Source: Candidatus Omnitrophota bacterium (GTDB taxonomy: Bacteria > Omnitrophota > Gorgyraeia > Zapsychrales > Fredricksoniimonadaceae). From it: a DNA stretch of 64,000 nt. Shown piece after piece: positions 120 to 27,677 of the stretch. The position numbers were made by a program, and so were the translations under genes. Each line of letters starts with the position of its first letter. The stretch's first letter is position 1. Under the pieces are notes generated by a model, which ran no database searches, was not told the DNA's origin, and saw nothing but the letters and a program-made list of their open reading frames with translations. Where the stretch lies: the NCBI GenBank assembly GCA_903944345.1, contig CAJARJ010000015.1:70433-134432 (forward strand), written 5' to 3'.

Positions 120-2204
120 TTATCCTTTCACTCCGATTAACATTCCTCCCTGGTACACCACAAACGCCGCCACCCAGGCCAGCACTGTAGTCCAGAAAAG
201 CAGAAAAAACAGCCATTTGGCTTTTGATCCGGTCTCCCGGTAAAAAACCGTAATGGCAACAATACAGGGCGCGTAAATAAGACAAAACACCAGAAAGGCA
301 ACAGCTTTTAACGGACTCCACGCCGGATCAGCAGCCAACTGTTCTTTAAGAGAATCCGCATCTTCCGGGTCAACTTCACCTAACGAATAAACAGTCCCCA
401 ATGTACTGACCACAATTTCTTTGGCCGCCAGCCCGGCAATAAGCGCAACCCCCGCACTTCCTTCCATGCCTATCGGCTTGAGTACCGGAGCCAGAACGCC
501 GGCCAACTGCCCCGCATAACTATGTTCCATCTGATATGCCGCAGCAACCTCCCCGACAACATCTCCGGTTGGCGCCACCTCGGGGAATTTAAAGGCAGCC
601 CAAATCACGACAGATAACAATAGTATAATCGTCCCGGCTTTCCGCAGATAAAGCCAGCCACGTTCCCACATCTTCAGCAGTAGACCCTGAATCGTCGGCA
701 ACCGATAAGGCGGCAGCTCCATGACAAAATGCGCCGATTCACCTTTGAGCACAAAAGTTTTAAGTATCCATGCCGATCCAAAAGCAATCCCAATACTCAG
801 TGAATACATAAGCATCATCATCCCGGCTCCCTGCTCTGCAGGAAAAAACGCAGCAATAAACAAGGCAAAGATGGGCAACTTGGCTCCGCAAATCATAAAT
901 GGCACAACCATCATGGTGATCAGCCGGTCCCGGGGGCTTTCAAGTGTCCTGGTTGCCATTAATCCGGGAACAGCACAACCATTGGTCGATATCATCAGCG
1001 GCAAAAAAGATTTGCCGTGAAGCCCGAACTTGCTCATCAATTTATCCATTACAAATGCCGCCCGGGCCATGTAGCCGGAATCTTCAAAAAATGCGATTGC
1101 AAAAAACATAAACAAAACCAGCGGAAAAAAGCCAAGCACCCCCCCAACACCCCCGACTATCCCGTCCACTACCAGAGACTGCAGCAAGCCATCGGGAATA
1201 GACTTCTGCGCAAAGTGACCCAGCCATTCAAAAAGGCCCTCCACCCACCCGACCACAGGAGCCGAAAAAGCAAAAGTAAATTTGAAGATCACATACATGA
1301 CCAGGGCAAAAACAGGCAATCCAAAAAAACGACTCAAGACAATCTTGTCGATCTTTTCAGAAGCACTTATTCTGGCTTCAGAAATTTCCGTCACAACCTC
1401 TGCGCAAATCCCGCTGACAAAACCATAACGCCGGTCAGCCACCAGAACATCCGTCGTTTCGGAAAAATGCGCAGCCAGATGAGCCTGGCTTTTTTCCAGC
1501 GTTGCATGATAAACACCTCCCACAGAAGACGACGCTATTCTTTGCAGGACATCCGGATCATTTTCAAGCGACTTGACTGCAAGCCAGCGAACCGGATATT
1601 CAACAGACAAAATCCGATCTCTGGCAAGTTCCTGCTCGAGTTTTTCAAGTTCCTGCACAATTTCTGCCCCGTAATCAACACTGGCCCGGGCAGGAGTTCG
1701 CCCTTTTTGCTCATACACGCTGATAACCGCCTGCAACAAGTCTTTAACCCCCTCATTCTTGTTCCCGACCGTTACCACAACCGGAATATTCAAAAGGCGC
1801 TCCAGCTTTTTATAATCAATAGCCAACCCCTTGCTCTTGACCAGATCACTCATGTTCATAGCCAGAAGAAGCGGAGCATCAAGCTCAATCAGCTGGGTCG
1901 CCAGATAAAGATTACGTTCCAGATTGGAAGCATCAATGACATGCACCACAACATCCGGTTTTTCCCGCAAAATAAAATCACGCGCAACCTTTTCATCGTC
2001 CGAGCCAGCCGACAGGCTGTACGTTCCCGGCAAATCTACCACCGTAACCTCATAATTATCGGCGATTACCCGGCCTTCTTTTTTTTCAACAGTTACGCCG
2101 GGGTAGTTACCAACATGCTGGCGTGCCCCGGTCAGGCTGTTAAAGATAGTTGACTTCCCGCAATTAGGATTGCCGGCCAATGCTACCGTAAACTTCTTCT
2201 CCAT
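120..2204 (-). CDS. feoB: Ferrous iron transport protein B
   Basis: 694 aa. N-terminal G-protein domain (GNPNCGKST, DLPG) followed by a polytopic membrane domain. GGAGG RBS upstream of the ATG at 2204. Confidence 0.95.
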   Translation of the reverse strand: MEKKFTVALAGNPNCGKSTIFNSLTGARQHVGNYPGVTVEKKEGRVIADNYEVTVVDLPGTYSLSAGSDDEKVARDFILREKPDVVVHVIDASNLERNLYLATQLIELDAPLLLAMNMSDLVKSKGLAIDYKKLERLLNIPVVVTVGNKNEGVKDLLQAVISVYEQKGRTPARASVDYGAEIVQELEKLEQELARDRILSVEYPVRWLAVKSLENDPDVLQRIASSSVGGVYHATLEKSQAHLAAHFSETTDVLVADRRYGFVSGICAEVVTEISEARISASEKIDKIVLSRFFGLPVFALVMYVIFKFTFAFSAPVVGWVEGLFEWLGHFAQKSIPDGLLQSLVVDGIVGGVGGVLGFFPLVLFMFFAIAFFEDSGYMARAAFVMDKLMSKFGLHGKSFLPLMISTNGCAVPGLMATRTLESPRDRLITMMVVPFMICGAKLPIFALFIAAFFPAEQGAGMMMLMYSLSIGIAFGSAWILKTFVLKGESAHFVMELPPYRLPTIQGLLLKMWERGWLYLRKAGTIILLLSVVIWAAFKFPEVAPTGDVVGEVAAAYQMEHSYAGQLAGVLAPVLKPIGMEGSAGVALIAGLAAKEIVVSTLGTVYSLGEVDPEDADSLKEQLAADPAWSPLKAVAFLVFCLIYAPCIVAITVFYRETGSKAKWLFFLLFWTTVLAWVAAFVVYQGGMLIGVKG

Positions 2205-2241: not shown

Positions 2242-2472
2242 CTATATTTCTACCGCCACCAGGGCCGCTTCTTCCTTTCTTAAAGAAAGCGCGTAGCCCC
2301 TGAGCACAAGTTCAACCGGATCTCCAAACGGCGCAACACGCTCTACCTTGACCTGTACGCCGGGAACAAGGCCCATATCCAGCAGCCTTTTCTTTAATGA
2401 CCCTTCCGCAAGAAGCTTTACAATCTTGGCTTTTTGTCCAATTTTCACTTCTGTCAGTTTCTCGGTTGCCAT
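2242..2472 (-). CDS. feoA: Ferrous iron transport protein A
   Basis: FeoA SH3-like domain (VKLLAEGSLKKRLLDMGLVPGVQVKVERVAPFGDPVEL). Start placed at the internal ATG at 2472, which has an AAGGA RBS. The ORF-track start at 2499 has no RBS. Confidence 0.8.
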   Translation of the reverse strand: MATEKLTEVKIGQKAKIVKLLAEGSLKKRLLDMGLVPGVQVKVERVAPFGDPVELVLRGYALSLRKEEAALVAVEI

Positions 2473-2505
2473 TGACTCATCCTTTTGATTAGCTCTCATG
2501 AACTG

Positions 2506-2523: not shown

Positions 2524-2540
2524 CAATAAACAAAAAAATA

Positions 2541-3008
2541 TTACGCACGCTCGCATTCACAGGTGACTTTTTTGCCAGTCTTCAAATACGTTTCCAGGTT
2601 CCTTAACAGCCTGGGCTTCTGGGTTCTGGCAGAATTTTCCAAAAACTTGAAAAACTTTACAAACCGGTCAAATGTTTCCTCACTGATGGCATGTTCAATG
2701 GAGCAAGCCTCCTGATCGGCCTGTTCCGGAGAAATCATAAGGAATTCCGTCAGAAAACGATAAAGAACATCGTGTTTCTCCTGAACGGCCGCAGCTAGTT
2801 TCTGTCCTTGCGGTGTCAGGGTGACGTAACCATATTTTTCATGAATCACCAGATCCCGGTCAGCAAGATTCTTCATGGCCGCATTGACACTCGGACTTTT
2901 GACATCCATCTTTTCGGCGATCTCGCTGACCCTGGCAACACCCTTCTCCCTGGACAAGGCGTGAATCGTCTCGAGATAATCTTCCATATTTTCGCTGAGT
3001 TTTTGCAT
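2541..3008 (-). CDS. DtxR/MntR-family metal-dependent transcriptional repressor
   Basis: 155 aa with an N-terminal winged-helix matching DtxR (MEDYLETIHALSREKGVARVSEIAEKMDVKSPSVNAAMKNLADRDLV) plus a metal-binding/dimerisation region. Sits directly upstream of feoAB on the same strand. Confidence 0.85.
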   Translation of the reverse strand: MQKLSENMEDYLETIHALSREKGVARVSEIAEKMDVKSPSVNAAMKNLADRDLVIHEKYGYVTLTPQGQKLAAAVQEKHDVLYRFLTEFLMISPEQADQEACSIEHAISEETFDRFVKFFKFLENSARTQKPRLLRNLETYLKTGKKVTCECERA

Positions 3009-4569: not shown

Positions 4570-4932
4570 TTACCGAGAGCAGATCGAGGGAGTTCCGGCG
4601 ACAATGCGCGCTGCCTGCTCAACACAATCCGCGCACCCCAATCGCCGGGCGGAACGAATAGTACGACAAGTAAGCCCGCCGGCTTCGCGCTGAAAGAAGG
4701 CCTCAATCTCGACCTTCTTTTCCGGTGCTGTCTTTTCGGCAATCTGCAGAGCTGCGTACACCGCCCCACAATACCCCTGAGCAGCACGGCCACCCGACGC
4801 TCCCGCCATGGCCCTTACAAAATCGTCTGCAAGGTCACAGGAATCCCGTAGAGCTTCTGCTACAGCCTGCGCACAGGTTAAGCGGGGAACCCCCTGACCC
4901 AGAAAATACTTACGTGCTGTCTCTGCAACCAT
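4570..4932 (-). CDS. Putative redox-active protein, C_GCAxxG_C_C family
   Basis: 120 aa starting at the ATG at 4932 with an AGGAGG RBS. Conserved Cys pattern (LTCAQAV, GYCGAVYAAL, GLTCRTI, GCADC) resembles the C_GCAxxG_C_C family. Confidence 0.45.
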   Translation of the reverse strand: MVAETARKYFLGQGVPRLTCAQAVAEALRDSCDLADDFVRAMAGASGGRAAQGYCGAVYAALQIAEKTAPEKKVEIEAFFQREAGGLTCRTIRSARRLGCADCVEQAARIVAGTPSICSR

Positions 4933-5048
4933 AATACAAAGCCTCCTGCTATTGACATCTTTAAGACTTGCTAAACCGCTCTTCTCGTTCTTGGCATATG
5001 TCAATAATAGCCGAAAAAAAGATTTTGTCAAGTCCGGAAAGAAAACAA

Positions 5049-8000
5049 CTATTTTCGGGAATGATCGACAGCCAGCAACATGTACATCGCCGGCACAACA
5101 AAAACCGTAAACAAGGTGCCGATAGCAATACCCGTCGCAATCACAAGCCCCATATTAAAACGGCCCGCCGCGCCGGCGCCGGAGGCAATCACCAAGGGCA
5201 TGACACCAAGAACGGTAGAGGCGGTGGTCATCAAAATCGGACGCAAACGAATCCCGGAAGACATCTCAATCGCCTCGCGCTTCTTCTTGCCTTCTTTTTG
5301 CAAATCATTGGCAAACTGGACAATCAAAATCCCGTGTTTACTGATAAGGCCTATCAGAGTGACCAGCCCGACCTGGGTATAAATATTAAGCGTCGCCCCT
5401 CCGATCCCCAGACTGATGAAAATCATGGCCCCGCAAATCGACATGGGAACGCTGACCAGAATAATCAAAGGGTCACGAAAACTCTCGAACTGCGCCGCCA
5501 GTGCGAGAAAAATAATAATAATGGCAAAAAAGAAAGTCAGAACAAGTGAGCTGGATTCTTTCATAAACTGGCGCGACTGTCCCGAGTAATCTACTCCATA
5601 CCCCTGTGGCAGGGAATCCTGGCCTATTTTTCTCAAAGCCTCCAGAGCCTGTCCCAGCGTGACTCCCGGCATGGGGACTCCCGAGATTGTGACAGAATTA
5701 AGCTGCTGAAAATGGTTAAGCGAACGGGGAACAACTGCTTTTTTAAGGCTGGCAATCGTGCCCAGCGGGACTACGGAACCATTTTTCGTAGTCATGTAGT
5801 AATCCAAAAGCTGATCGGCATTAAGACGTTCTTTCTGCATAGCCTGCGGGATCACCTTGTAGGAACGGCCGGAAAGACTAAAATAATTGACATACCCGCC
5901 GCCGAGCATGGATCCCAGCGCTCCGCCCACTTCTTGCATGGATAACCCCATCTGCGCCGCCTTCTCCCGGTCGATCAGCAGCTGGGTCTGCGGCTTGTCA
6001 ATCTTCAAATCCTTGTCCACATAAATAAACATTCCACTGGCTTTGGCCTTGTCCAGAACAGCCTGGGCCACCTCGTCAAGACGCTCGGGTGAATCGGTTG
6101 TCCCGATTACAAACTGCACGGGCATACCTTCTCCTCCACCCGGAAGAGCCGGTGGCAGAAACGCCACACCATCTACCCCGGTCAAACCTGCCAGCTTTGT
6201 CTGCAAGTCCTCCTGTACCGCCAGAGAAGAACGTTTGCGGTCTTTCCAGGGCTTGAGCACCACCCCGCCAAAAGAGGAATTCAGTCCGCCCATGCCATCG
6301 ATCTGGAAAAAGTGTTCCGCCTCGGGGTAATCCTTGACAATTTTCCCGATCTCTCCGGAATAAAGCACCATCTGATCCAAAGATGCCGTAGGAGCCCCCG
6401 TATAAAACGCCATGACAAAACCAGGATCCTCTGTCGGCGCAAGTTCGCTCTTGGCACTGACAAAAAGATAGTAATTACTCATAAGGACAATGGCAGCAAA
6501 GACCGCAACTACCGGTAAATTATCCAGTGCTCCATGCAGAAACTTCTCGTAGAGCCTGCGCAAAGCCTCGAAACGCTCATCAATAAACTCGACAAAAGTG
6601 TGCCGCTCCTTGTGCTCGTAATGCCTGAGCAGCCTGGCGCACATCATTGGTGACAAAGTCAGAGCAACCACAGCCGAAACCGTAACCGCTCCGGCCAGAG
6701 TAAAGGCAAACTCGGTGAAGAGTGCTCCAGTCAACCCGCCCATAAATCCAATGGGGACATAAACAGCAATCAGCACAATCGTCATGGCAATGACCGGACC
6801 ACACAGCTCCCGCCCGCCCCGAAGCGCCGCTTCCAGAGGAGGCAGCCCGTCTTCTATATGCCGGTGGATATTCTCGACCACAATAATCGCATCATCTACA
6901 ACCAGTCCGATGGCCAGAACAAGAGCCAGCAGAGTCAACAGATTGATGGTATAGCCCATCAACAACATGATAAAGAATGTTCCCACCAATGACAGTGGCA
7001 TCGCCAGCGAAGGAATAAGAACAGAACGAAACGATCCCAGAAAAAGGAAGATCACGCCCGTCACAATCAAAAGGGCTTCAAGCAGTGTCTTGACAACTTC
7101 ATGGATTGAATTATTAACGTAATTGGTCGCATCATAAACAATGCGACCCTCAAGCCCCTGGGGAAGCTGGGACTCAATCTCGGGAAAAACTTTTCGTACC
7201 CGGTCAATGACCGTCAGAAGATTGGCGGTCGGCGCCACCTTGATACCCACAAACACCGCACTCTCGCCATCGAAGGAAACTGAAACATCATAATTTTCCG
7301 AACCAAGAGTGACGTTGGCAACGTCTTCCAGCCGTACGATAGCACCCCCCACGGAACGAACAACCATCTTCCTGAACTCCGCCACCGAATGCATTCCGGT
7401 TGCGGCTGTCAAATCCATTGTCACCACCTGCCCCTGGGTGCGCCCTACAGCAGAAATAAAATTATTCGCTGCCAGAGCGGAACTCACATCCGACGCGGTC
7501 AAGCCGTAAGCGGCCAGCCTCCGGGGATCAAGCCAGATGCGCATAGCAAACTGGCGACTTCCGATGACCTCCGCAGTCTGCACACCTTCGACTGTCTGCA
7601 ATTTGGGCTGCACCACCCGAACCAGATAATCAGAAGTATTATTTGCAGGCAGAACCTTACTGTAAAAGCCAAGATACATGGAAGCAGTCGATTCCCCGGT
7701 TTCCACTGTTATGGTCGGTTGCTGGGCTTCTGCCGGCAACTGGTTACGCACCGCATTCACCTTGGTGTTAATCTCGGTAAGAGCACGATTCGAGTCATAA
7801 TTCAGGCGCAAAGTAGCCTTGATGGTGCTGACACTCGGGCTGCTGGAAGAAGACATATAGTCAATGCCGTTCGCCTGGGCGATTGAATTCTCAAGAGGTG
7901 TTGTAATAAACCCGGCCACCAGTTCCGGATCTGCGCCCGTGTAAACAGTCGTAACGGTTATGACCGCATTCTGTGTCTCGGGATACTCCCGCACGCCCAG

Positions 8001-8093
8001 CAAACTCACGGCCCGGATACCCAGGACAAGGATCACGAGGCTGACAACAATCGCCAGAACCGGACGACGGATAAAGATATCGGTAAAATTCAT
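5049..8093 (-). CDS. RND multidrug efflux permease (AcrB/HAE1 family)
   Basis: 1014 aa with 12-TM RND architecture and two large periplasmic loops. N-terminus MNFTDIFIRRPVLAIVVSL is typical of AcrB-like pumps. Confidence 0.9.
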   Translation of the reverse strand: MNFTDIFIRRPVLAIVVSLVILVLGIRAVSLLGVREYPETQNAVITVTTVYTGADPELVAGFITTPLENSIAQANGIDYMSSSSSPSVSTIKATLRLNYDSNRALTEINTKVNAVRNQLPAEAQQPTITVETGESTASMYLGFYSKVLPANNTSDYLVRVVQPKLQTVEGVQTAEVIGSRQFAMRIWLDPRRLAAYGLTASDVSSALAANNFISAVGRTQGQVVTMDLTAATGMHSVAEFRKMVVRSVGGAIVRLEDVANVTLGSENYDVSVSFDGESAVFVGIKVAPTANLLTVIDRVRKVFPEIESQLPQGLEGRIVYDATNYVNNSIHEVVKTLLEALLIVTGVIFLFLGSFRSVLIPSLAMPLSLVGTFFIMLLMGYTINLLTLLALVLAIGLVVDDAIIVVENIHRHIEDGLPPLEAALRGGRELCGPVIAMTIVLIAVYVPIGFMGGLTGALFTEFAFTLAGAVTVSAVVALTLSPMMCARLLRHYEHKERHTFVEFIDERFEALRRLYEKFLHGALDNLPVVAVFAAIVLMSNYYLFVSAKSELAPTEDPGFVMAFYTGAPTASLDQMVLYSGEIGKIVKDYPEAEHFFQIDGMGGLNSSFGGVVLKPWKDRKRSSLAVQEDLQTKLAGLTGVDGVAFLPPALPGGGEGMPVQFVIGTTDSPERLDEVAQAVLDKAKASGMFIYVDKDLKIDKPQTQLLIDREKAAQMGLSMQEVGGALGSMLGGGYVNYFSLSGRSYKVIPQAMQKERLNADQLLDYYMTTKNGSVVPLGTIASLKKAVVPRSLNHFQQLNSVTISGVPMPGVTLGQALEALRKIGQDSLPQGYGVDYSGQSRQFMKESSSLVLTFFFAIIIIFLALAAQFESFRDPLIILVSVPMSICGAMIFISLGIGGATLNIYTQVGLVTLIGLISKHGILIVQFANDLQKEGKKKREAIEMSSGIRLRPILMTTASTVLGVMPLVIASGAGAAGRFNMGLVIATGIAIGTLFTVFVVPAMYMLLAVDHSRK

Positions 8094-8105
8094 AACACTC
8101 TTTCT

Positions 8106-9236
8106 TTATTCATCCCGCGGATTCGGAGCAGGATCGTTAGGCAATGCGGGCTCATTGCTAATCACCAGCAAGCTCCCGTTCTTCAGTTTATGCTGCCCGG
8201 CTGAAACAACCTCGCTGCCGACAGGTATGCCATCAAGAACCGCAATCTGATCTCCCCGCGTCTCCCCGGTTTTAATAAACGTCTGCCGGGCCGTCAGGAC
8301 AGGCTGCCCGTCGGCGCCCTTCTCTTTCTCCTCAACCAGAAAGACTGTTTCGCCATACGGATTAAAACTGACGCACGCCTGCGGGATGGTCACCTGATTA
8401 AGAACATTCCCGGACTTGACTTCAACAGATACAAACATCCCTGGCAAAAACTCTCCTGCAGGATTGGCAACGGTGGCCTCGACCAGAATATTGCGCGAAT
8501 CCTTGTCGACCCGGGGGGCCATAGCCGTAATTTTCCCCTCAAACACATGCCCAGGACGCGCATCCGCCGTGATTATAACCATCTGCCCGGTCGAAAGCCG
8601 CGCAAACTCCTGCTGCGGAACAAAGAAATCTACCCGCAAAGGATCCATTGCCTGCAAAGTTACAAAAGTTTCCCCCGGGTTAAGATATCCACCCACGCTT
8701 AACGTACTTATCCCTAACTTCCCGGAGAACGGCGCCCGGATAGTTTTCTTCGCGATCATTGCCTCCTGCTCTTCGACCTGAGCTTCCCGGCTTTTAAGCT
8801 CGGCAACACCCGCATCCACGACAGCCTGGCTGATCGCCCGCACATCCAGCTGTTTCTTGTCCCGTTCATAAACAATCCTGGCCAATTCGGCAGCGGCTTT
8901 CAAAGCTTTCAGGCGTGCCCGGTCGGTATCCGCATTCAGTTCCATCAACACATCCCCAAGCTGCACTTCATCTCCTGAAGAGAAATGAACCGCCTGAACC
9001 TGTCCTGCCACCTCACTCGAAATTTCGACCCCCCTGGCGGCCCGCAAATCTCCTACAACATTAATGCCAGGCTGCCACAACTGCGTACCGGCCCGGACAG
9101 TAGACACACTGACCGGCGGCTCCTTCTGAGAGGCAAAATACTGCTTCATCATATAACTGCCAAAGGCATGATAGCCCCAAATGCCGCCAAAAACACACCC
9201 GACAATAACCAGCATAAGCAACATCTTTTTACCCAT
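8106..9236 (-). CDS. RND efflux periplasmic adaptor (membrane fusion protein, HlyD family)
   Basis: 376 aa with an N-terminal TM anchor, coiled-coil and beta-barrel/lipoyl-like regions. Located between the OMF and RND genes. Confidence 0.85.
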   Translation of the reverse strand: MGKKMLLMLVIVGCVFGGIWGYHAFGSYMMKQYFASQKEPPVSVSTVRAGTQLWQPGINVVGDLRAARGVEISSEVAGQVQAVHFSSGDEVQLGDVLMELNADTDRARLKALKAAAELARIVYERDKKQLDVRAISQAVVDAGVAELKSREAQVEEQEAMIAKKTIRAPFSGKLGISTLSVGGYLNPGETFVTLQAMDPLRVDFFVPQQEFARLSTGQMVIITADARPGHVFEGKITAMAPRVDKDSRNILVEATVANPAGEFLPGMFVSVEVKSGNVLNQVTIPQACVSFNPYGETVFLVEEKEKGADGQPVLTARQTFIKTGETRGDQIAVLDGIPVGSEVVSAGQHKLKNGSLLVISNEPALPNDPAPNPRDE

Positions 9237-11483: not shown

Positions 11484-13148
11484 CTAGAACGGCCACATGA
11501 CCAGTCCGCCATCCATCACCTTGACATTCGTAAACCCCTCTCCCTGGAGAATCATGGCGGCTTCATAACCCCGCAGCGATATTTTGCAAAAGGCTACGAT
11601 CTGCCTGTTCCGGGGCAGCTCAGCCCAACGCTGACGCAAACCTCCCAAAGGGATATTGACCACCGGGCCCAGCGTAAAAGGCATGGCTGCAACCTCTGCT
11701 GGCGAGCGAACATCCAGAAAAAGAATATTATCGCCGCGCTCAAGGCTCTCTTTGATCTCAACCGGAGTAATCCCCTCAAAAACACCGTCTATCTTGTTTC
11801 GTACAATATCACATGCGGTAATAATATTATCCATCGCCGGAGAATATGGCGGAGCATAGGCCAGATCCAGATGCGCCACATCGTCAACCGTCATCCGTGC
11901 GGTAATCGCTGTAGCGGCCACATCGACCCGCTTGTCTCCTTCTCCCGGGCCCACAACCTGCAAGCCAAGCAGTCGACGCGATTTTCTGTCGGCTATAACC
12001 TTGAGCATGATCGTCTTTGCCGCAGGATAATAATGCGCCTTGTCGGGAGCAGAACTCAACGCGGTAACAACCTCAAAACCCGCTTTGCGCGCCTGTTCCT
12101 CGCTCAATCCCGTACGGGCAACTGTATAATCAAAAACCTTGATCACAGCCGTTCCAAGGACCCCGGGGAAAACGTCATCTCCCCCGCAGACATTGACTGC
12201 CGCCACACGCCCCTGCTTGTTTGCGGTAGACCCCAACGGGACATAGCAGGGTTCTCCGCTGACAAGCTCTACTGCCTGTACGCAATCCCCTGCCGCATAA
12301 ATGTCCGGATCACTGGTCTGCATGTGTGCCGAAACTTTTATGCCTCCGGTCTTACCGATCTCAAGGCCAGCGTCTTTGGCCAGAAAAACATTGGGCCTGA
12401 CCCCGACCGCAACAATAACCATGTCACAAGGGATGTCCCCCTGATCGGTTTTGACTATCTGCGCGCTCCCGCTTCCTTCGAAAGACTGAACGGCAGTTGA
12501 GCAGCGGACCTTGACCCCTTTTGACTCCAGATGCCTGATCACATGCGCTACAAGCTCAGGGTCCATCATAGGTAAAATCGCAGGCAGCCTTTCGACTACC
12601 GTAATCCTGGCCCCATGCCGTGCCAGGGCCTCGGTCATCTCGATACCAATCAGTCCGCCTCCAACAATCACTACATCCCGGGCCTTGTTCTGCGCAACCG
12701 CTTCACGAATAGCTTCGGCGTCCTCAATTTTCTGCACCGAAAAAACATTGCTGAAGTCCATACCCGGTATTGGCGGCCTGACCGGATATGCTCCGGTTGC
12801 CAAAACCAGCTTGTCATACGCCAGTAACTGCTCTTGTCCGGACTTCAAATCACGAATCCGGATTGTCTTCTGCTGACGATCAATTCCAAGGGCTTCCGTT
12901 CGGTTAAGCACTCGCATGTTCTTGACATTCTGGAAAAATACCGGATCACGCACAACGCCTACAGGCGTACACATAAGTTCTTTCTGTTCCTTGACTTCTC
13001 CGGCAACGTAATAAGGAAGACCGCAACCGGCATATGACAGAAACTCGCCTTTCTCGACCAGTGTCACCTGTGCATCAGGCGCCAAACGACTGATCTTGGC
13101 TCCCGTCTTGGGGCCAGCCGCAACTCCTCCGATAATAACAACTTTCAT
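11484..13148 (-). CDS. CoA-disulfide reductase / NADH oxidase with C-terminal rhodanese domain
   Basis: Pyridine-nucleotide-disulfide oxidoreductase fold (MKVVIIGGVAAGPK, GGGLIGIE) plus a C-terminal rhodanese-like domain (FCKISLRGYEAAMILQGEGF). Start at the ATG at 13148 with an AAGGAGA RBS. Confidence 0.8.
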   Translation of the reverse strand: MKVVIIGGVAAGPKTGAKISRLAPDAQVTLVEKGEFLSYAGCGLPYYVAGEVKEQKELMCTPVGVVRDPVFFQNVKNMRVLNRTEALGIDRQQKTIRIRDLKSGQEQLLAYDKLVLATGAYPVRPPIPGMDFSNVFSVQKIEDAEAIREAVAQNKARDVVIVGGGLIGIEMTEALARHGARITVVERLPAILPMMDPELVAHVIRHLESKGVKVRCSTAVQSFEGSGSAQIVKTDQGDIPCDMVIVAVGVRPNVFLAKDAGLEIGKTGGIKVSAHMQTSDPDIYAAGDCVQAVELVSGEPCYVPLGSTANKQGRVAAVNVCGGDDVFPGVLGTAVIKVFDYTVARTGLSEEQARKAGFEVVTALSSAPDKAHYYPAAKTIMLKVIADRKSRRLLGLQVVGPGEGDKRVDVAATAITARMTVDDVAHLDLAYAPPYSPAMDNIITACDIVRNKIDGVFEGITPVEIKESLERGDNILFLDVRSPAEVAAMPFTLGPVVNIPLGGLRQRWAELPRNRQIVAFCKISLRGYEAAMILQGEGFTNVKVMDGGLVMWPF

Positions 13149-13165
13149 CTGCTCTCCTTTGTATT

Positions 13166-14179
13166 TCAATTTCTTGCTGGAGAAACCTCCGGCACCCCGG
13201 ATTCGCCAAAGACCCGATCAGTCAGCCGGACATACCATGCCGCAGACTGCACCTGCACGATATAAGCAAAACAAATCACCAAGGCGGCATCCGTACCATG
13301 CGCCCCGAATGAATTCATGGCAATCGCCAAAGCAATTGACAGATTACGCATAACAGTTCCATAAACAAAAGCAATGGCATCCTTTCTTGAAAAATATTTT
13401 CTGGCCAACAGGGTACTAATCATATAATTCAATACATACAGCAGAATCACAGGAATCAGTATTGTAACAATTTCACCGGGATGCCCCCAGATAGCCCTGG
13501 CTTTGAGTGCAATCGCAATAAAGATGACACCAAGCACCCCTGCCGTTGACAAGGATGACAGCGATGGCACAATTCTCGTTTTAAAAAGCTCCGCGCCTTT
13601 CTTTCTCAGCAAATACTGCCGCGTCAACTGCCCCAACAGCATGGGAAGAAAAACAACCAGCATAATCTGCTTTATAATGTCCGGCACATTGACAGCAATA
13701 TCGGCTCCCAACAACCACTTGATATAAACAGGTGTCAGAAAGGAACCCGCGGTCAGCCCAATCACGGTCATCTTGACCGCCGCTTCAACATTGCCTTTTG
13801 CAAATCCTGTCCAGGAAATAGTCATCCCGCTGGTAGGCAAAAGTCCCGCCAGCAAGAATCCCAGAACATAGTATGCCTGTGCGCCGAAAAACACTTTACC
13901 TATAAGAAGAGCAACAAAAGGAAGCAGGGCAAAATTAAGAATCTGAGCCGCGATCTGCAGACGCAAATCTCCGATAGCCAGAACTTTCTGCATATTCAGA
14001 TTAACCATCATCGGATAGACCATTAATATGGTCATCGGGATAATGCCTGCCTTAAGGACAGAAGATTCAAAAACGTTCCCCCATACAAAACCAATCAACA
14101 TAACCACAGGAATCGCCATAACCAGTCGCTTGGTAACCCACATCAACACATTTTCAATTTTACAAATAATATTACCCAT
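13166..14179 (-). CDS. ACR3 / bile-acid:sodium-symporter-superfamily transporter (arsenite-efflux-like)
   Basis: 337 aa with about 10 TM segments. Motifs VYPMMVNL and ISWTGFAKGN resemble ACR3 (MYPPLAKV, VWNDLAKGD). AAGGAGA RBS before the ATG at 14179. Confidence 0.5.
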   Translation of the reverse strand: MGNIICKIENVLMWVTKRLVMAIPVVMLIGFVWGNVFESSVLKAGIIPMTILMVYPMMVNLNMQKVLAIGDLRLQIAAQILNFALLPFVALLIGKVFFGAQAYYVLGFLLAGLLPTSGMTISWTGFAKGNVEAAVKMTVIGLTAGSFLTPVYIKWLLGADIAVNVPDIIKQIMLVVFLPMLLGQLTRQYLLRKKGAELFKTRIVPSLSSLSTAGVLGVIFIAIALKARAIWGHPGEIVTILIPVILLYVLNYMISTLLARKYFSRKDAIAFVYGTVMRNLSIALAIAMNSFGAHGTDAALVICFAYIVQVQSAAWYVRLTDRVFGESGVPEVSPARN

Positions 14180-14306
14180 CAGACTTCTCCTTAGCCCCGA
14201 ACTTCTGCTTTAGACAAACGTTTCCTGTTAGAATGTCATCCTTAATTACTGGCATATGCCAATAATAGCTTATAAAAAAACTTGTCAAGCCCTGGCTCAA
14301 ACAAGT

Positions 14307-15029
14307 TTAGACCCGCTCACCAACATCCATCACATCTCCCTCTCGCAAGCAAATATAATTGTCCCCGTAGACGCGCCCGAACTCCTCGACAGCAAAGCCT
14401 CCCGTGCAGTGCAAGGGAGCGACAGACAAAACCCCGAAACCCGCCAGGCATTCAATGATCGCCCGGATCTCATGCTGATCCATATCCTTCAAATGAAAAC
14501 CGCCAACAATAACACCTATATCATCACCGAAATTACTTCTTACTGCCCGCAGAATATCGGCCAGACAAGGATGCGCGCACCCGGTCACAACTCCAAGCGA
14601 CAGATTGTCCCGGATAACCAGCGACTGTTCGTACAAAACCCCCCGCGGCGAATGACCTGTCAATTCCCCTGTTGTATAAACCCCCTCACGAATCAAGACC
14701 GGCTCCGGCGTTTCGACAAGCTTGACCCCGTATGAACGAATCCGATCCTTCAGATCCTGATTAAAATGCGGCCCGACATAAACCGCCAGATTCTTGTACG
14801 TCTCAATCACCGGCCAAAGCCCGGCAATATGATCCCAATCATCATGTGAGATGACCACATGCCGCACTCTGGAGAGATCAATCCGGAACTTGCGCACGTT
14901 GTGCATAAAAACATCACCATCCCCGAATGTATCAAAAAGAACATCCTCACCAATCAAGAATGAAATCCCCCAGCGCCTGGCCATGCGTTGCTCTTTGGTC
15001 GATCCTTCTGCAATCAGGGTAACTTTCAT
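14307..15029 (-). CDS. Metallo-beta-lactamase-fold hydrolase
   Basis: 240 aa with the HxHxDH motif (ISHDDWDHIAG). Overlaps the upstream MinD-like gene by 4 bp, implying co-transcription. Confidence 0.7.
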   Translation of the reverse strand: MKVTLIAEGSTKEQRMARRWGISFLIGEDVLFDTFGDGDVFMHNVRKFRIDLSRVRHVVISHDDWDHIAGLWPVIETYKNLAVYVGPHFNQDLKDRIRSYGVKLVETPEPVLIREGVYTTGELTGHSPRGVLYEQSLVIRDNLSLGVVTGCAHPCLADILRAVRSNFGDDIGVIVGGFHLKDMDQHEIRAIIECLAGFGVLSVAPLHCTGGFAVEEFGRVYGDNYICLREGDVMDVGERV

Positions 15030-15916
15030 ACGGCCTCTTTGTTTCTTTCAGATGCCCCGGTTACAATCTGACTCAGATTTTGCCAGACATCAGCAACAGC
15101 CGATTTAACCACCTCAGCAGCCCCTTCCATAACCGTCTTGCCCGACACAACACAGTCAACAACGGACCGGTCAAAAGGCACCCGTCCTGCAATAGCCACC
15201 CCATTGTCCAGGCAATATCTCTCGATCGTTTCTGTTACTGCGGGATTGATGTCCCACTTGTTCACCGCAAGCAAAACAGGAATCCTGAAATGTTTCCCCA
15301 GGTCGATCACCCGCGCCGCATCGTGCAAACCCGAACAGGTGGGCTCGCTTACCAGTAAAACCGCATCAACACCTGACAAAGACGCCATAACCGGACACCC
15401 GATCCCTGGCGGACCGTCGATAATAACCCAATCCCTTTTCCCGGCTATCGCGAGTTCTTTGCCCCGCTGCCGGATTCGGGCCACCAGTTTTCCCGAGTTC
15501 TCCTCGCCGGCACCCAGGCGCGCATGCACCATGGTTCCAAAACGTGTCCTGGAAACAAACCATTCTCCACACATATTCTCTGCCATCCTGATAGCCTGTA
15601 CGGGACAAAGCCTCGCACACAACCCGCACCCTTCGCACGCCCCTGGATCAACCTGCAAGTCTTTTGTTATCGCTCCAAACCGGCAAACCTCAAAACAACG
15701 GGCACAGCGGACACAAGCTCCCGAATCAATACACGCTTTATGTCCACTTCGAAACTCATGACGCTCTATAATCTCGGGTTCCAAAAGAAGATGCAGATCC
15801 GCCGCATCGACATCGCAATCAACCAGAAGCTTGTTATCCACAAATGCGGCCAGAGCGCCAGTCATCACAGTCTTTCCCGTGCCACCTTTCCCGCTAAGAA
15901 CAACGATCTGTTTCAT
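15026..15916 (-). CDS. MinD/ParA-superfamily P-loop ATPase with inserted 4Fe-4S ferredoxin domain
   Basis: Deviant Walker A (GKGGTGKT) plus two CxxCxxCxxxCP ferredoxin motifs (CVRCARCFEVC, CEGCGLCARLCP). Confidence 0.75.
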   Translation of the reverse strand: MKQIVVLSGKGGTGKTVMTGALAAFVDNKLLVDCDVDAADLHLLLEPEIIERHEFRSGHKACIDSGACVRCARCFEVCRFGAITKDLQVDPGACEGCGLCARLCPVQAIRMAENMCGEWFVSRTRFGTMVHARLGAGEENSGKLVARIRQRGKELAIAGKRDWVIIDGPPGIGCPVMASLSGVDAVLLVSEPTCSGLHDAARVIDLGKHFRIPVLLAVNKWDINPAVTETIERYCLDNGVAIAGRVPFDRSVVDCVVSGKTVMEGAAEVVKSAVADVWQNLSQIVTGASERNKEAV

Positions 15917-16760
15917 CTTTCACCCTGAGGATATTCTTATATAGCTCATGAAACAGCCCGGCCATAGCCAAAGACTTGTCGACAAGCGTTTCACCACCTG
16001 AATAACACACCGCAATCTCACGAGCAAATGGAATCCTGGCCAAAACCGGAATATGTTCTACGCGGCAATAATTCTCGACAGCATCGTTTCCCAACCCTGC
16101 CCGATTAATGACGACCCCAAACGGAATCTTCATCTGACGCACAACAGCAACGGCCAGCACAAGATCATGCAAGCCAAACGGTGTCGGCTCGGTAACCATA
16201 AGACAAAAGTCAACGCCTCTGATTGCTGCAACAACCGGACAGGATGTTCCCGGCGGGGCGTCAATAATTGTAAGCCCCCGTGAATCAGCGAGCTCCTTCA
16301 CCCGCCGGATAAGAACCGGCGAGAGAACCTCGCCAACATTCATCTTGCCGTGTGCAAAGGAAACAGACCCCCGTGTTCCTTTCTGGATTATTCCGATACT
16401 CCTGCGGTTCTCATGAATGGCACCTGTCGGACACAACAGGCTGCAGGCACCGCAAGCATGACATAGATGAGGAAAAACAAGCGGCTGAGGATTTTTGTCA
16501 ATGCCTGGAATAACAGCAATGGCATGATAGGCACAAACCCGGGCACATTCGCCGCAGCCTGTACAGCGACTGACATCGACCTCCGGCACCGGAACTGTAA
16601 CGGGGGTTTCTTCCCGCCATTCCGGCTTGAGGAACAAATGCGCATTAGGCTCCTCGACATCGCAGTCCAGCAAGCAAACAGAACCCGCCACCAGTGCCAG
16701 ATTCACCGCCACAGTTGTTTTTCCAGTCCCGCCCTTGCCGCTGGCCACAGCAATAATCAT
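15894..16760 (-). CDS. MinD/ParA-superfamily P-loop ATPase with inserted 4Fe-4S ferredoxin domain (paralog)
   Basis: GKGGTGKTT Walker A plus CTGCGECARVC and CHACGACSLLCP. Paralog of the adjacent gene. Confidence 0.75.
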   Translation of the reverse strand: MIIAVASGKGGTGKTTVAVNLALVAGSVCLLDCDVEEPNAHLFLKPEWREETPVTVPVPEVDVSRCTGCGECARVCAYHAIAVIPGIDKNPQPLVFPHLCHACGACSLLCPTGAIHENRRSIGIIQKGTRGSVSFAHGKMNVGEVLSPVLIRRVKELADSRGLTIIDAPPGTSCPVVAAIRGVDFCLMVTEPTPFGLHDLVLAVAVVRQMKIPFGVVINRAGLGNDAVENYCRVEHIPVLARIPFAREIAVCYSGGETLVDKSLAMAGLFHELYKNILRVKDETDRCS

Positions 16761-17125
16761 CGCCCGGGCACCGGCTTCGACCTGGCATCTTCTGCTTGCG
16801 CCCGCTGAAGCTTACCGGATCGGTAAGCCTCCGCCGCGTCTTTAACCGTTCCTGCCGAACCAATGAAAATCTCCACCCCGGCCGCATTTAGTACCCCGAA
16901 TGCATTCGGCCCAACATGCCCGGTGATCACAGCCGTCACCCCTTTTGAGGCAACCAGCTGTGCCGACTGAATCCCCGCGCCCCCTGAGGTTTCGATATTC
17001 GGATTGGAGACAGCCTCAATCGCACCGGACTCAAGATCAAAAATAACAAAAGTCTGACATCGTCCAAACCTCGGGTCAACCTGCGAGCCGAGTTCGGCAC
17101 CTGAAGCTGTAATACATACTTTCAT
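16757..17125 (-). CDS. Dinitrogenase FeMo-cofactor-binding-domain protein (NifX/NifB-like)
   Basis: Start reassigned to the ATG at 17125 with an AAGAGG RBS. Domain signature MKVCITASGAELGSQVDPRFGRCQTFVIFD ... ITGHVGPNAF. Confidence 0.7.
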   Translation of the reverse strand: MKVCITASGAELGSQVDPRFGRCQTFVIFDLESGAIEAVSNPNIETSGGAGIQSAQLVASKGVTAVITGHVGPNAFGVLNAAGVEIFIGSAGTVKDAAEAYRSGKLQRAQAEDARSKPVPGR

Positions 17126-17144
17126 CCTAACCTCTTTTCGACGA

Positions 17145-17528
17145 TTAATGCTGACATGAATGTCCGCCCTCACCATGCCCTTTGCAAGGCTCAATGCCTC
17201 CAAGTTCATTCTTAAGGAGGGCGTCAAGACCTGCCCGGACTTTTCCTTCGAAACCAAAAATTTTGACCCCTTTCATGGCAAACTTCTGCTGTGCCCCCAT
17301 CCCCATTCCTCCCGCGATCACATGAGTGATATCATGACTGACAATGGCATCAACTGCCTTACACCCGCCACCACCATGCTGCTCCGGATTTGGCACTATC
17401 CTCGACCCGGCCAGAGTCTTGCCGTCCGCAGCAATATCCACAATCAAAAAACTCGGACAATGCCCGAAATGCGCCGACACCATTCCATCCAAACCCTGTT
17501 CATCTTCCAGCACAACTCCTATTCGCAT
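17145..17528 (-). CDS. Dinitrogenase FeMo-cofactor-binding-domain protein (NifX-like) with Cys/His-rich C-terminal tail
   Basis: Start at the ATG at 17528 with an AAGAGG RBS. MRIGVVLEDEQGLDGMVSAHFGHCPSFLIVD ... AGGMGMGA. C-terminus is CKGHGEGGHSCQH. Confidence 0.7.
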   Translation of the reverse strand: MRIGVVLEDEQGLDGMVSAHFGHCPSFLIVDIAADGKTLAGSRIVPNPEQHGGGGCKAVDAIVSHDITHVIAGGMGMGAQQKFAMKGVKIFGFEGKVRAGLDALLKNELGGIEPCKGHGEGGHSCQH

Positions 17529-17567
17529 ACTCGCCTCTTTCTTTCCCTGATAACACATTGAAGTAGA

Positions 17568-17582
17568 TGGAAACAATTTCCA
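17568..17582. promoter_or_regulatory. Palindromic operator TGGAAACAATTTCCA upstream of the NifX-like/MinD-Fd operon
   Basis: 7-1-7 inverted repeat with one mismatch, 40 bp upstream of the ATG at 17528. Near-identical to the site at 18091-18105. Confidence 0.45.
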
Positions 17583-17600
17583 TTAACTATTTAAAAAAAA

Positions 17601-18077
17601 CTAAGGCTGATCCCTCAGACAATCCTTGCACACGCCATAAAACTGGATCATATGATTATCAATCCTGAAATTATACTTTTGCGACAGCCCCTTTTCTGTC
17701 CGGCGCAAAAGCTCCAATTCATCGTCGATAAAATCGGTATAATCGATCACCCTTTTGCATTCCGTGCAAACCAGATGATGATGGTGATGCTCACCCTTGG
17801 GGCCTTGCGTCAGCTCATAACGGGATTTACCGTCGCCGAAGTCGAACCTGGAAACAAGTCCCGCCTGAGCCAGCATATCCAGCGTTCGATAAATCGTTGT
17901 CAGGCCAACGTTGGGGAAACGCGCATGTATACGGGAATAAACATCCTCGGCGCTTAAATGGTCATGCGTGGCTGCCAGAGTGTCAATGATGGCCTCGCGT
18001 CCAGCCGTAATTCTGTAACCACAATCCTTGACCTTGCCATGCCACCATTGCGAACCACATCTTTTTTGACAAGGCAT
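17601..18077 (-). CDS. Fur-family metalloregulator (Fur/Zur/PerR-like)
   Basis: Fur fold (ITAGREAIIDTLAATHDHLSAEDVYSRI), an HHHHH-L-CxxC motif and a C-terminal CxxC. AAGGAGA RBS before the ATG at 18077. Confidence 0.8.
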   Translation of the reverse strand: MPCQKRCGSQWWHGKVKDCGYRITAGREAIIDTLAATHDHLSAEDVYSRIHARFPNVGLTTIYRTLDMLAQAGLVSRFDFGDGKSRYELTQGPKGEHHHHHLVCTECKRVIDYTDFIDDELELLRRTEKGLSQKYNFRIDNHMIQFYGVCKDCLRDQP

Positions 18078-18090
18078 ACATTCTCCTTAA

Positions 18091-18105
18091 TGGAAACAGT
18101 TTCCA
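18091..18105. promoter_or_regulatory. Perfect 7-1-7 palindrome TGGAAACAGTTTCCA upstream of the Fur-family gene
   Basis: 14 bp upstream of the fur-like ATG. Same motif as 17568-17582. Architecture resembles Zur/Fur boxes. Confidence 0.45.
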
Positions 18106-18175
18106 ATAATAACCGGACACGCTATTTTTGTCAATCAAAGAATAGAACCGGCATTCTCCTTTTGCGGCTACGCCA

Positions 18176-18796
18176 TCACACTTTTGCTGTCACCAGAAAT
18201 ATCCCGAAAATACGTTCGGCCCCGTTACCTGCGGGCCTGGTAACTCTGGCAGCTGAAGAAAAGCTGATCTCACTAAAGCCCGCCTCCTGCAAAACAACTG
18301 TCAGCTTCTCGTGCTTAAAACCATGATGAAAGACTCCTGTATTATCGGCATGAAACAACCCGTCTTCTTCATCCAGATCGGCCAGAGCAATCCTTCCTCC
18401 CGGCCGCAAAACTGCCTTGAACTGCGCCAAAAGCCTGGCAATATCCTGGATATGATGCAAAGTCATGCTGCTGACAACAAGATCGTAGACCCCCTCAAGT
18501 TGCTCCCCTTTGGTCAGGTCAGCCTGGACGGCTTCAAGATTCCCGATACCTGACAAACGGGCTTTCTCCCTGAGAACCGCCAGCATGCCTTCTGAACTGT
18601 CCAGCGCAGTTATCGTGCGCACAAAGGGTGCTACCAGAAGCGAAACCAGACCTGTCCCGCACCCGAAGTCCAGGACATCCATGTGCGGCCCGGGGCTGAC
18701 CCGCTGTAAAACAGCCGCAGCAATATCCCGGGCCAGACTGATTCGCATCGGAGTATCCCAGGCTGCCGCTTCCTTGTCAAAATTTCGTGTCTCCAT
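18176..18796 (-). CDS. Class I SAM-dependent methyltransferase
   Basis: Motif I VLDFGCGTGLVS (Methyltransf_11/25-like). Confidence 0.75.
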   Translation of the reverse strand: METRNFDKEAAAWDTPMRISLARDIAAAVLQRVSPGPHMDVLDFGCGTGLVSLLVAPFVRTITALDSSEGMLAVLREKARLSGIGNLEAVQADLTKGEQLEGVYDLVVSSMTLHHIQDIARLLAQFKAVLRPGGRIALADLDEEDGLFHADNTGVFHHGFKHEKLTVVLQEAGFSEISFSSAARVTRPAGNGAERIFGIFLVTAKV

Positions 18797-26010: not shown

Positions 26011-26868
26011 TTATAAACAGCGTAGTTTAGCCTTCTTCTGAAAAACTCTTGTCACATTACCATTCGCATTTTTCCAATCCGGGCAGGAAGAAAAGATGGA
26101 AGAGAGAAATTTTTTAACCCGCACGGCTATCCGATCGCTGATCTGCCGACAGCGCTTCAGTTTCTGCGCCTCACTGCCCTTAAGGTCCGCCGGATCTTCA
26201 AACTCCCAGTGTATGCGCTTCGCCTTGCCCGGGAATACCGGACAACGCGCCCCTTCCGATTCCGCGCAAACGGTTATCACGTAATCAAACGACTGCCCCT
26301 GGCTGATCAAATCGTGCACGCTCTTGCTGCGGCAACCCGTAAGACTTATCCCCTTCTCTTTAAGAATCGCGATAACCATCGGATTAAGCGCTCCAGGCTC
26401 CAGACCAGCACTCGCCACCACGACTTGCGCCCCGCCCAACTTCCTTGTATACGCCTCCGCCATCTGGCTGCGGGCGGCGTTATGCACACAAACGAACAAA
26501 ATGCGAACCGCGTTACCGCCAACACTGCGTGAATCTGTTCTAGCGGAAAGGCTCCGCAATTTATCTATATCCCTGCGGGCAATCTTGTTTTCCAGAAAAC
26601 ACGATTCCAGACACCCCAGAATGCTCCGCACCAGGACATCATTGGAACGATTTATCCCGTAAAAGGACTGTGTCCCTTCTTCCCGAATAACAAGCAACCT
26701 GTTATTCTTAAGATACGCCAGATGACGCGATATGGTTGACTGTGGCAAACCCGTAACACCTACCAGATCCTGAACCCGCCTTTCGCCATGAGTAAGCAGA
26801 ATCATGATCCGCAGCCGTACCTCTTCGCTCATGGCTTTAAAAATAGCCGCTTCTTCTTTCACGCACAC
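26011..26868 (-). CDS. ArsR-family HTH regulator fused to an LMW-PTPase-type arsenate reductase domain
   Basis: N-terminal ArsR/SmtB HTH ([45 protein letters not shown]). C-terminal [12 protein letters not shown] ... [17 protein letters not shown]. Starts with GTG at 26868. Confidence 0.75.
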
Positions 26869-26989: not shown

Positions 26990-27676
26990 TCACAACAAGT
27001 TGAACCGGTATCCTATCCCCGGCTCATTAACGATACGTTTGGGCCTGGAAGGATCATCCTCAATCTTTTGGCGCAAATGATTCAAATAAACGCGTACTGA
27101 ATTCAGCTTCTGCTCATTATCAGTTGCCCAAACATCTCTCAAGATCTGCCGCATCGTAAGAACCCTTCCGGCATTCTTGATGAACAATATCAACAGTCCA
27201 TATTCAATAGCCGTCAACTTAAGCGGCTGTCCATTAAGAGCGGCGATGCGCGTGTTGAACTCCAGGCGCAAGCCGGCATTGTCAAAAACCTCATCAACAA
27301 TTCCCGGAGTTGTTTTACGTCTCAAAACAGCCTGGAGCCGCGCGATCAGCTCGACCGCTGAAAAAGGCTTGGTCACGTAATCATCAGCGCCATTCTCAAG
27401 GCATCTTACCTTGACTTCTTCCTGACCTCGAACTGAAACCATGATCACGGCCACATCGCTTATCTCCCTAATCCTCAGAAGCACATCTGTACCTTCCATA
27501 TCCGGCAGCCCCATGTCCAACAGCACGGCATTAGGCTTCTTGTAAACCAGCGCAGCCAAGCCTTCCTTCCCGGAGCCCGCTTCAATCATGCCATATCCGG
27601 CATGAGTCAGAATCACCCGCAACAATTTTTGAATCTGCGGTTCGTCATCAATAACCAAAACTAGTCCCTTGGACAT
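26990..27676 (-). CDS. kdpE: Two-component response regulator KdpE (OmpR family)
   Basis: Receiver (LVLVIDDEPQIQKLL ... LLDMGLPDMEG) plus a winged-helix output domain. Directly downstream of kdpD. Confidence 0.85.
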   Translation of the reverse strand: MSKGLVLVIDDEPQIQKLLRVILTHAGYGMIEAGSGKEGLAALVYKKPNAVLLDMGLPDMEGTDVLLRIREISDVAVIMVSVRGQEEVKVRCLENGADDYVTKPFSAVELIARLQAVLRRKTTPGIVDEVFDNAGLRLEFNTRIAALNGQPLKLTAIEYGLLILFIKNAGRVLTMRQILRDVWATDNEQKLNSVRVYLNHLRQKIEDDPSRPKRIVNEPGIGYRFNLL

Positions 27677-27677
27677 C

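Follow-up and report, generated by a model that had tools for sequence, protein, structure and literature searches.

What switches on a compact set of genes for two NifX-like proteins, two ferredoxin-bearing MinD-type ATPases and a metallo-beta-lactamase (MBL)-fold protein that stands directly behind a Fur-family regulator, and what might such a set be for? The question is raised by a 64,000-nucleotide stretch of a Candidatus Omnitrophota genome (GenBank assembly GCA_903944345.1, contig CAJARJ010000015.1, positions 70,433 to 134,432 of the forward strand), which we refer to as the window. On balance, we consider it probable that the regulator gene, fur, and the ORP-like genes behind it form one unit under Fur-family repression through two copies of a 15-bp palindrome, the Fur box, and that the products constitute a carrier system for iron-sulfur (Fe-S) or other metal-sulfur clusters. 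The evidence for the regulatory architecture is good. A first-pass annotation of the window, made from the nucleotide sequence alone, had called the function of such clusters unknown; the cluster is no orphan, as it resembles the published orange-protein (ORP) complex cluster of Desulfovibrio vulgaris, but the function of the ORP complex is itself still unclear.

Gene content of the cluster

The cluster consists of the following genes.

17601..18077, minus strand: Fur-family gene (fur), 158 aa; PF01475, 113.4 bits against a cutoff of 23.1, residues 20-147
17145..17528, minus strand: NifX-like protein 1 (NifX1); IPR003731/PF02579, 72 bits against a cutoff of 26.3
16757..17125, minus strand: NifX-like protein 2 (NifX2); PF02579, 90.7 bits against a cutoff of 26.3
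15894..16760, minus strand: MinD/Mrp-class P-loop ATPase 1 (MinD1), with an inserted 2x[4Fe-4S] ferredoxin domain; Orp3/Orp4-like
15026..15916, minus strand: MinD/Mrp-class ATPase 2 (MinD2), a paralogue of MinD1, with 2x[4Fe-4S] motifs
14307..15029, minus strand: MBL-fold protein of the COG1237 type; Lactamase_B, 30.5 bits against a cutoff of 22.7

The first-pass annotation had described six co-oriented genes of just these kinds, and both the profile matches and an independent gene caller bear this out, with identical gene coordinates in 14 assemblies of the same organism. The profile searches for the Fur and NifX-like domains that it had proposed were positive, with the scores listed above. 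Its statement that several gene pairs overlap by 4 bp is correct for two pairs (NifX2/MinD1 and MinD2/MBL), whereas MinD1 and MinD2 overlap by 23 bp. Each of the two MinD/ParA ATPases carries two CX2CX2CX3C motifs. The claim that nitrogenase structural genes are lacking also held, as a profile search found no such domain in any large open reading frame (ORF) of the window; no nifHDK/nifEN/nifB neighbourhood was found in the window, and the NifB profile reached 19 bits against a cutoff of 344. A role in nitrogenase-cofactor handling (NifX/NafY/NifB) was rejected because its defining features are absent.

Promoter, operators and transcript layout

Six regulatory features frame these genes.

18129..18134, minus strand: -35 hexamer TTGACA of the fur promoter; 11/12 consensus matches together with the -10 hexamer
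18106..18111, minus strand: -10 hexamer TATTAT of the fur promoter; directly abuts Fur box 1
18091..18105, no strand assigned: Fur box 1, TGGAAACAGTTTCCA, a perfect 7-1-7 palindrome; position weight matrix (PWM) score 20.0
17593..17618, minus strand: weak hairpin with a T8 run, leaky terminator-like; 6-pair stem, overlapping the fur stop codon
17568..17582, no strand assigned: Fur box 2, TGGAAACAATTTCCA, between fur and NifX1; PWM score 21.3
14274..14308, minus strand: intrinsic terminator of the operon; 13-pair stem and U7, -13.6 kcal/mol

The fur promoter is a near-consensus sigma-70 promoter, TTGACA-17-TATTAT (18134-18106), and because it directly abuts box 1, this box covers the expected transcription start. 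Downstream of box 1 come AAGGAG and then the fur ATG, with 13 nt between box and ATG. Box 2 is found 19 nt past the fur stop codon and is separated from the NifX1 ATG by 39 nt, and at the far end the operon terminator overlaps the MBL stop. Scanning species-representative genomes with the Fur-like protein yielded 78 related loci, in which a near-consensus TTGACA-17-TATAWT promoter likewise precedes the upstream box, at a distance of 0-6 nt from the end of the -10 hexamer, a placement typical of a repressor site; in 44 of 55 related loci this promoter has 11-12 of 12 matches. The flank upstream of fur is not conserved in these loci, so that the conserved module starts at the fur promoter.

No separate sigma-70 promoter was found at box 2, either in the window or in 57 related loci, and a hairpin with a T7-8 run recurs after fur in most of the related loci. 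Because box 2 is without a promoter of its own and the post-fur hairpin and T-run recur, the layout suggests a single promoter, a leaky stop after fur and an internal operator; box 2 probably acts within a read-through transcript. The post-fur hairpin was also considered as a strong terminator, a candidate rejected on account of its weakness in the window. Phasing of the two boxes, as would be expected for DNA looping, was not seen: their spacing shows no helical periodicity (R = 0.15; median spacing 527 bp).

The palindromes had been placed by the first-pass annotation at the two positions given above, and these positions were confirmed. At no more than one mismatch the window contains two copies, boxes 1 and 2, against 0.03 expected, while the count at three mismatches (6 against 3.7 expected) is not above chance. 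A genome-wide scan for the 15-bp box had been proposed; a PWM scan covering 74 kb, made up of the window and the 10 kb that adjoin its start and including feoAB, a ZIP transporter gene and genes for rubrerythrin and superoxide dismutase (SOD), found boxes 1 and 2 and no others. In the related loci the upstream box lies 22-54 nt from the fur ATG in 50 loci and the downstream box 17-37 nt past the fur stop in 56 loci. The PWM gave 115 matches in 720 kb of related loci, 106 of them at the two expected places beside fur, and several of the remaining nine likewise precede fur genes; since the matrix derives from the same box sites, the honest control is the near-absence of matches elsewhere. T1 and G2 of the box are conserved at 98-99%. 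The proposal of an autoregulated Fur-family module acting through a repeated palindrome thus gains support from the same two positions in approximately 50 loci of several candidate phyla.

These data bear on the explanation that the palindromes arose by chance or fold as RNA hairpins and do not serve as operators. Short palindromes can fold, and the three-mismatch count would be compatible with chance, but two copies stand against 0.03 expected at one mismatch or fewer, conservation in some 50 loci is specific for both sequence and position, A3 occurs together with C13 in several loci and breaks the pairing, and a loop of 1 nt does not allow a 7-bp stem to close. This explanation is effectively refuted. 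The RNA-hairpin reading was rejected for the same reasons, namely sequence-specific conservation and loci in which pairing is broken.

Across the related loci the motif grades from TGGAAAYNRTTTCCA through TGAAAATNATTTTCA to TGATAATGATTATCA. With A/T flanks, TGAAAATNATTTTCA is the exact delta-proteobacterial FUR box, and TGATAATGATTATCA is the Fur box in its classical form. Rodionov et al. (2004; PMC545781) derived the FUR box WTGAAAATNATTTTCAW upstream of feoAB and fur in delta-proteobacteria. Since the motif grades into the published Fur box, the window palindrome is a lineage variant (G3, C7) of a known Fur operator and not a new operator type. The module shares with the delta-proteobacterial Fur regulon (PMC545781) a 7-1-7 palindrome upstream of fur, pointing to autoregulation, and most related loci carry TGAAAATNATTTTCA in its exact, A/T-flanked form. 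It differs in that position 3 of the window boxes is G and positions 7/9 are C/G (TGGAAAC.GTTTCCA), that a second box lies behind the fur ORF and that the target is an ORP-like cluster and not feoAB. In one relative, labelled Calditrichota (L045), the fur promoter has two overlapping boxes shifted by 6 bp, as in Desulfovibrio (PMC545781).

A box of this type could also mean that the protein is simply the general Fur of the organism, with a large regulon in which the ORP-like genes are one target among many and nothing is dedicated to them. The box is indeed of the type used by the general Fur regulons of delta-proteobacteria, feoAB is linked to fur in three relatives (L045, L063 and L068), and the 74 kb scanned are only part of the genome. 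Against this stand the lack of any further box in those 74 kb, the iron-transport, ZIP, rubrerythrin and SOD genes included, the mere nine matches away from fur in the related loci, and the linkage of fur to the ORP-like genes, which persists in many lineages with differing upstream flanks. We regard a general Fur as possible but doubtful.

Likely function of the products

The ORP cluster of D. vulgaris Hildenborough (orp5-orp4-orp3 / orp7-orp8-orp9, DVU2103-2109) encodes two MinD-like proteins with two [4Fe-4S] motifs each (Orp3 and Orp4), a [2Fe-2S]-binding protein (Orp5), the Mo-Cu orange protein (Orp8) and Orp9 (MrpORP), which transfers Fe-S clusters to Orp3/4. The window cluster shares with it two stand-alone IPR003731 proteins, of which one is an orange-protein homologue and one is Cys-rich like Orp5, as well as a restriction to anaerobes and two paralogous MinD-like ATPases with two [4Fe-4S] motifs, which appear similar to Orp3/Orp4 in architecture. 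It differs in lacking the MrpORP (Orp9) fusion, for which NCBIfam NF041136 gave only fragment matches of 37-48 bits against a cutoff of 450, and in forming a single co-directional operon that includes the MBL gene. Control differs as well: in D. vulgaris, sigma-54 and the redox sensor OrpR activate the cluster, whereas the window cluster has neither a sigma-54 promoter nor OrpR and has a sigma-70 promoter with boxes and a putative repressor of the Fur family in their place.

NifX2 is of the MTH1175/orange-protein (Orp8) type, with full-length matches to MTH1175 (85 bits), TM1290 (76 bits) and the D. gigas orange protein (2wfb; 69.5 bits, E = 3.4e-18). Solved relatives of the NifX-like proteins are 1eo1, 1rdu, 2wfb and 2yx6. 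NifX1 has four invariant Cys and four His that are invariant or nearly so (H20, C24, H51, C56, H69, C115, H118 and C125) and ends in EPCKGHGEGGHSCQH, a 13-residue Cys/His motif already noted as a tail in the first-pass annotation; from these residues it is a probable binder of an Fe-S or other metal cluster, with an Orp5-like architecture.

Both ATPases keep the deviant Walker A motif and all eight ferredoxin Cys. The eight Cys of the two ferredoxin motifs of MinD2 are kept in 97% of sequences, and further Cys are conserved at C33/34, C174 and C232/235 of the ATPases (C34, C174 and C235 in MinD2). The AlphaFold2 model of MinD1 has a predicted local distance difference test (pLDDT) score of 90.8, and its nearest solved folds are archaeal MinD, ATPase-type HypB, ApbC and Cfd1; by this model, the nearest relatives of the ATPases in fold appear to be MinD/Mrp-class metallochaperones and Fe-S carriers. 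A NifH/BchL-like reductase fold was rejected, as BchL and NifH appear only at ranks 37-50. Both ATPases also have an invariant Cys 7 residues past the Walker B Asp (DAPPGTSC / DGPPGIGC), which is where NifH has its switch II cluster ligand, Cys132; together with C232/C235, this Cys could form a bridging cluster across the dimer. The MBL protein has 7dck (106 bits), Tm1679 and 2p4z as relatives in the PDB, and its gene lies within the cluster in approximately 25 related loci.

A second system with an IPR003731 domain linked to iron-sulfur handling is IssA of Pyrococcus furiosus (PMC5524996). IssA has a long cationic Gly/aromatic tail that is lacking in both NifX-like proteins of the window, the tail of NifX2 being short and not rich in Gly or aromatic residues, and thioferrate storage of the IssA type was rejected for this reason. 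In relatives, the Gly/Arg/aromatic-rich region of the DUF5320 proteins encoded after fur is reminiscent of that tail. P. furiosus produces IssA under plentiful iron and sulfide (PMC5524996), the reverse of Fur-type repression.

The regulator and its signal

The Fur-like protein has a structural Zn site of two CXXC motifs (C104, C107, C150 and C153, invariant in 26 homologues), sensing-site ligands H40, E88, H99, H101 and D112, and a complete third metal site (H98, H100, E120 and H142). An invariant Arg64 in the recognition helix fits the G at position 2 of the box. The closest solved structures are Fur proteins and B. subtilis PerR, and the profile scores are 130 bits for Fur, 88 bits for clostridial PerR and 32 bits for Zur. 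From the conservation of the box beside the gene we infer that the protein binds the 7-1-7 repeats as a metal-loaded dimer. The N-terminal motif of this Fur subfamily, WWHGK(F/V)(R/K)xCG (residues 11-19), has an invariant W12 and C19 and a near-invariant H13; it is not a recognised Fur metal site and could be an extra sensing or contact element.

In our preferred scheme, a single transcription unit would run from the sigma-70 promoter at 18134-18106 to the terminator at about 14274, and the metal-loaded dimer would bind both 15-bp boxes. Occupancy of box 1, over the transcription start, would cause autorepression, while occupancy of box 2, past the leaky hairpin and T-run, would block or lower read-through into the five downstream genes. 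Loss of the Fe(II) corepressor, through iron shortage or, given the PerR-type Asp in the sensing site, through peroxide-driven oxidation, would vacate both boxes and allow expression of the operon, the products of which are most likely an ATP-dependent carrier and maturation system for Fe-S or other metal-sulfur clusters. In E. coli, Fur controls the suf Fe-S assembly operon. The logic proposed here may be comparable to that of such a stress-induced system, in which a Fur-type repressor silences an Fe-S cluster operon until iron shortage or oxidative stress sets in; it differs from suf in that the window proteins are unrelated (there is no SufBCDSE) and the regulator gene is within the same transcription unit.

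The fifth sensing ligand, Asp112, aligns with PerR D104, and 68 of the 69 close homologues share this Asp; the residue equivalent to D85 is Glu. PerR has Asp at both of these O-donor positions. According to published work, the D104 position is occupied by Glu in Fur proteins and by Asp in PerR proteins, and the residue there decides H2O2 access and reactivity. B. licheniformis PerR3 (BL00950), a Fur-family repressor with the same E85/D104 pair, is H2O2-sensitive. The regulator might therefore be a PerR-type peroxide or O2 sensor acting on a Fur-type box, with the operon serving oxidative-stress repair or re-supply of Fe-S clusters and not a response to iron starvation. In addition to the Asp, a peroxiredoxin gene in the operon of six related loci (the first gene after box 2 in L018) and genes for Dps-like/ferritin-like and EncFtn-like proteins in the operons of some others are consistent with such a sensor, as is the fact that feoAB in the window has a DtxR-type neighbour and no Fur box. 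In PerR of B. subtilis, however, the recognition helix has Asn and box position 2 is T, against Arg and G in Fur. The window protein has Arg, and its box has G2, in continuity with TGAnAAT-N-ATTnTCA, and not the PerR-type T2; the third metal site is intact, E88 is Fur-like, and the profile score favours Fur over clostridial PerR. No classical peroxide-defence gene in the window carries the box, the PWM scan having found none upstream of the rubrerythrin and SOD genes, and in L045 feoAB lies within the operon. That the regulator functions as a PerR-type sensor is conceivable, although we think it unlikely.

The rubrerythrin-like and Fe/Mn superoxide dismutase genes (50950-52280) adjoin genes for a 2-oxoacid:ferredoxin oxidoreductase.

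We consider it very unlikely that the regulator is of the Zur-, Nur- or Mur-like kind and responds to a different metal handled by the cluster (Zn, Ni, Mn, or Mo/Cu). This would suit the Mo-Cu cluster of the orange protein, the ZnuABC-like and ZIP genes upstream of fur in a few relatives and the His/Cys-rich tail of NifX1. The set H40/E88/H99/H101/D112 is, however, of the Fur/PerR type, whereas Zur has Cys at the D85-equivalent position and is without an H37 equivalent; the Zur profile score is low, and the box equals the Fur box.

Several observations weigh against our preferred scheme, repression of an ORP-like operon through two boxes by a Fur-family protein. Asp112 is atypical for an iron-sensing Fur, in which Glu is expected as the fifth ligand. 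The feoAB genes of the window have no Fur box and adjoin a DtxR-type repressor gene with a repeated palindrome of its own; hence, the Fur-like protein may not be the regulator of iron uptake. Induction by iron starvation is hard to square with the ferritin-like genes of some related operons. The orp operons of Desulfovibrio are on at low redox potential and off on oxidation, a response opposite to PerR-like derepression. The post-fur hairpin in the window (-7.3 kcal/mol, z = -0.86) is not significant alone, and an unrecognised promoter at box 2 is possible. Finally, the data show the gene content, the promoter, the boxes and their conservation, and from these we infer that the Fur-like protein binds the boxes, that it does so with a corepressor and represses, what its signal is and what the products do. 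The placement of feoAB, inside the Fur-controlled operon in L045 and divergent from fur in L063, links the regulator to iron, as far as gene order can indicate. The signal may be iron, peroxide or both; peroxide enters because the sensing site carries the PerR-type Asp, and iron is somewhat more likely.

The iron-transport genes of the window (120-3066) are as follows.

2541..3008, minus strand: dtxR-like repressor gene
2242..2499, minus strand: feoA
120..2204, minus strand: feoB

Inverted repeats of 16 bp are found upstream of the dtxR-like gene (GTTAGCCTAGACTAAC, 3051-3066) and between this gene and feoA (GTTAGCCTGGGCTAAC, 2507-2522), and these are the only two sites of their type in the window, against 0.25 expected. 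The arrangement of regulator, box in front and box behind is the same as that of the Fur module.

The module in related genomes

NifX-like and MinD-ferredoxin genes follow fur in approximately 60 of the 69 loci whose Fur protein is at least 56% identical to that of the window. The conserved gene order is fur / DUF5320 / NifX / NifX / methyltransferase / MinD / MinD / IscU-like / MBL, and the relatives include uncultivated anaerobes labelled Omnitrophota, WOR-3, TA06, Elusimicrobia, Nitrospirota, Auribacterota and Spirochaetota. A DUF5320 gene lies between box 2 and the first NifX-like gene in 60 related loci; from the corresponding interval of the window (17529-17600) it is absent in all 14 assemblies. 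An IscU-like NifU_N protein is encoded in the module of 19 loci, and other recurrent genes encode a second DUF5320/zinc-ribbon protein, an S-adenosylmethionine (SAM)-dependent methyltransferase, DUF89, DsrE and ferritin-like proteins.

The DUF5320 protein begins with MPGFDGTGP, has a Gly/Arg/aromatic-rich N-terminal half and a coiled-coil C-terminus, and in composition recalls the thioferrate-binding tail of IssA. The L045 operon (2393-8791) comprises genes for DUF5320, a radical-SAM protein, FeoA, FeoB, a TrmO-like protein, DUF89 and a MinD-like ATPase, and is without a NifX-like gene.

A bolder reading, tentative in its parts and unlikely as a whole, is that fur and the ORP-like genes form a self-contained module exchanged between uncultivated lineages, that its dedicated regulator is a hybrid which joins Fur-type DNA recognition to PerR-type oxidation, and that the ORP proteins would serve in an iron- or oxidant-triggered rescue or re-issue of Fe-S (or thioferrate-like) clusters and not as a cell-division factor.

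Work on the ORP complex of Desulfovibrio, from 2004-2011 onwards, has not settled its function, and a redox-sensing sigma-54 activator is the only control known for it. The component parts described here are all of known kinds. What is new is that an ORP-like cluster is wired to a Fur-family sensor, together with the breadth of this arrangement across candidate phyla and the PerR-type Asp in a protein that would bind Fur boxes. We found no publication that links Fur to NifX-like, ORP or DUF5320 clusters, within an incomplete coverage of the literature. Fur-box wiring would give a physiological cue for when ORP proteins are needed, namely iron status and/or peroxide. The subgroup would also be a natural case of the single Glu-to-Asp change that has been reported to make Fur peroxide-sensitive, and with six genes and two operators, the operon is compact enough that it could be rebuilt in a model host.

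Neighbouring genes and other loci of the window

One further gene borders the fur promoter.

18176..18796, minus strand: SAM-dependent methyltransferase, directly upstream of the fur promoter

The stop of leuA and the start of the methyltransferase gene overlap by 20 nt (18777-18796), and because of this overlap, the methyltransferase is probably co-transcribed with leuA in this genome. Homologues lie within the Fur-controlled operon, between NifX2 and MinD1, in approximately 19 related loci; hence, this gene probably belongs to the same functional set as the operon, although it is relocated here.

Downstream of the operon terminator are an SBF/ACR3-like transporter gene (14179..13166) and then a CoA-disulfide reductase-rhodanese gene (13169..11484). 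Between the terminator and the transporter gene lies a palindrome of 22 bp, ATTATTGGCATATGCCAGTAAT (minus strand, 14245-14266), which is likely the operator of another regulator. Homologues of the CoA-disulfide reductase are also present within the Fur module of L018 and L064.

Elsewhere in the window, a 2889-aa protein (37514-46183, minus strand) has two GH94 supersandwich domains, a GH94 catalytic domain and a glucoamylase-like domain, and resembles a cyclic beta-1,2-glucan synthase. An ArsR-type helix-turn-helix domain is fused to a low-molecular-weight phosphatase/ArsC-like domain (26011-26868), and the gene for this fusion adjoins a complete kdpABC-kdpDE potassium-pump locus (26990-34785).

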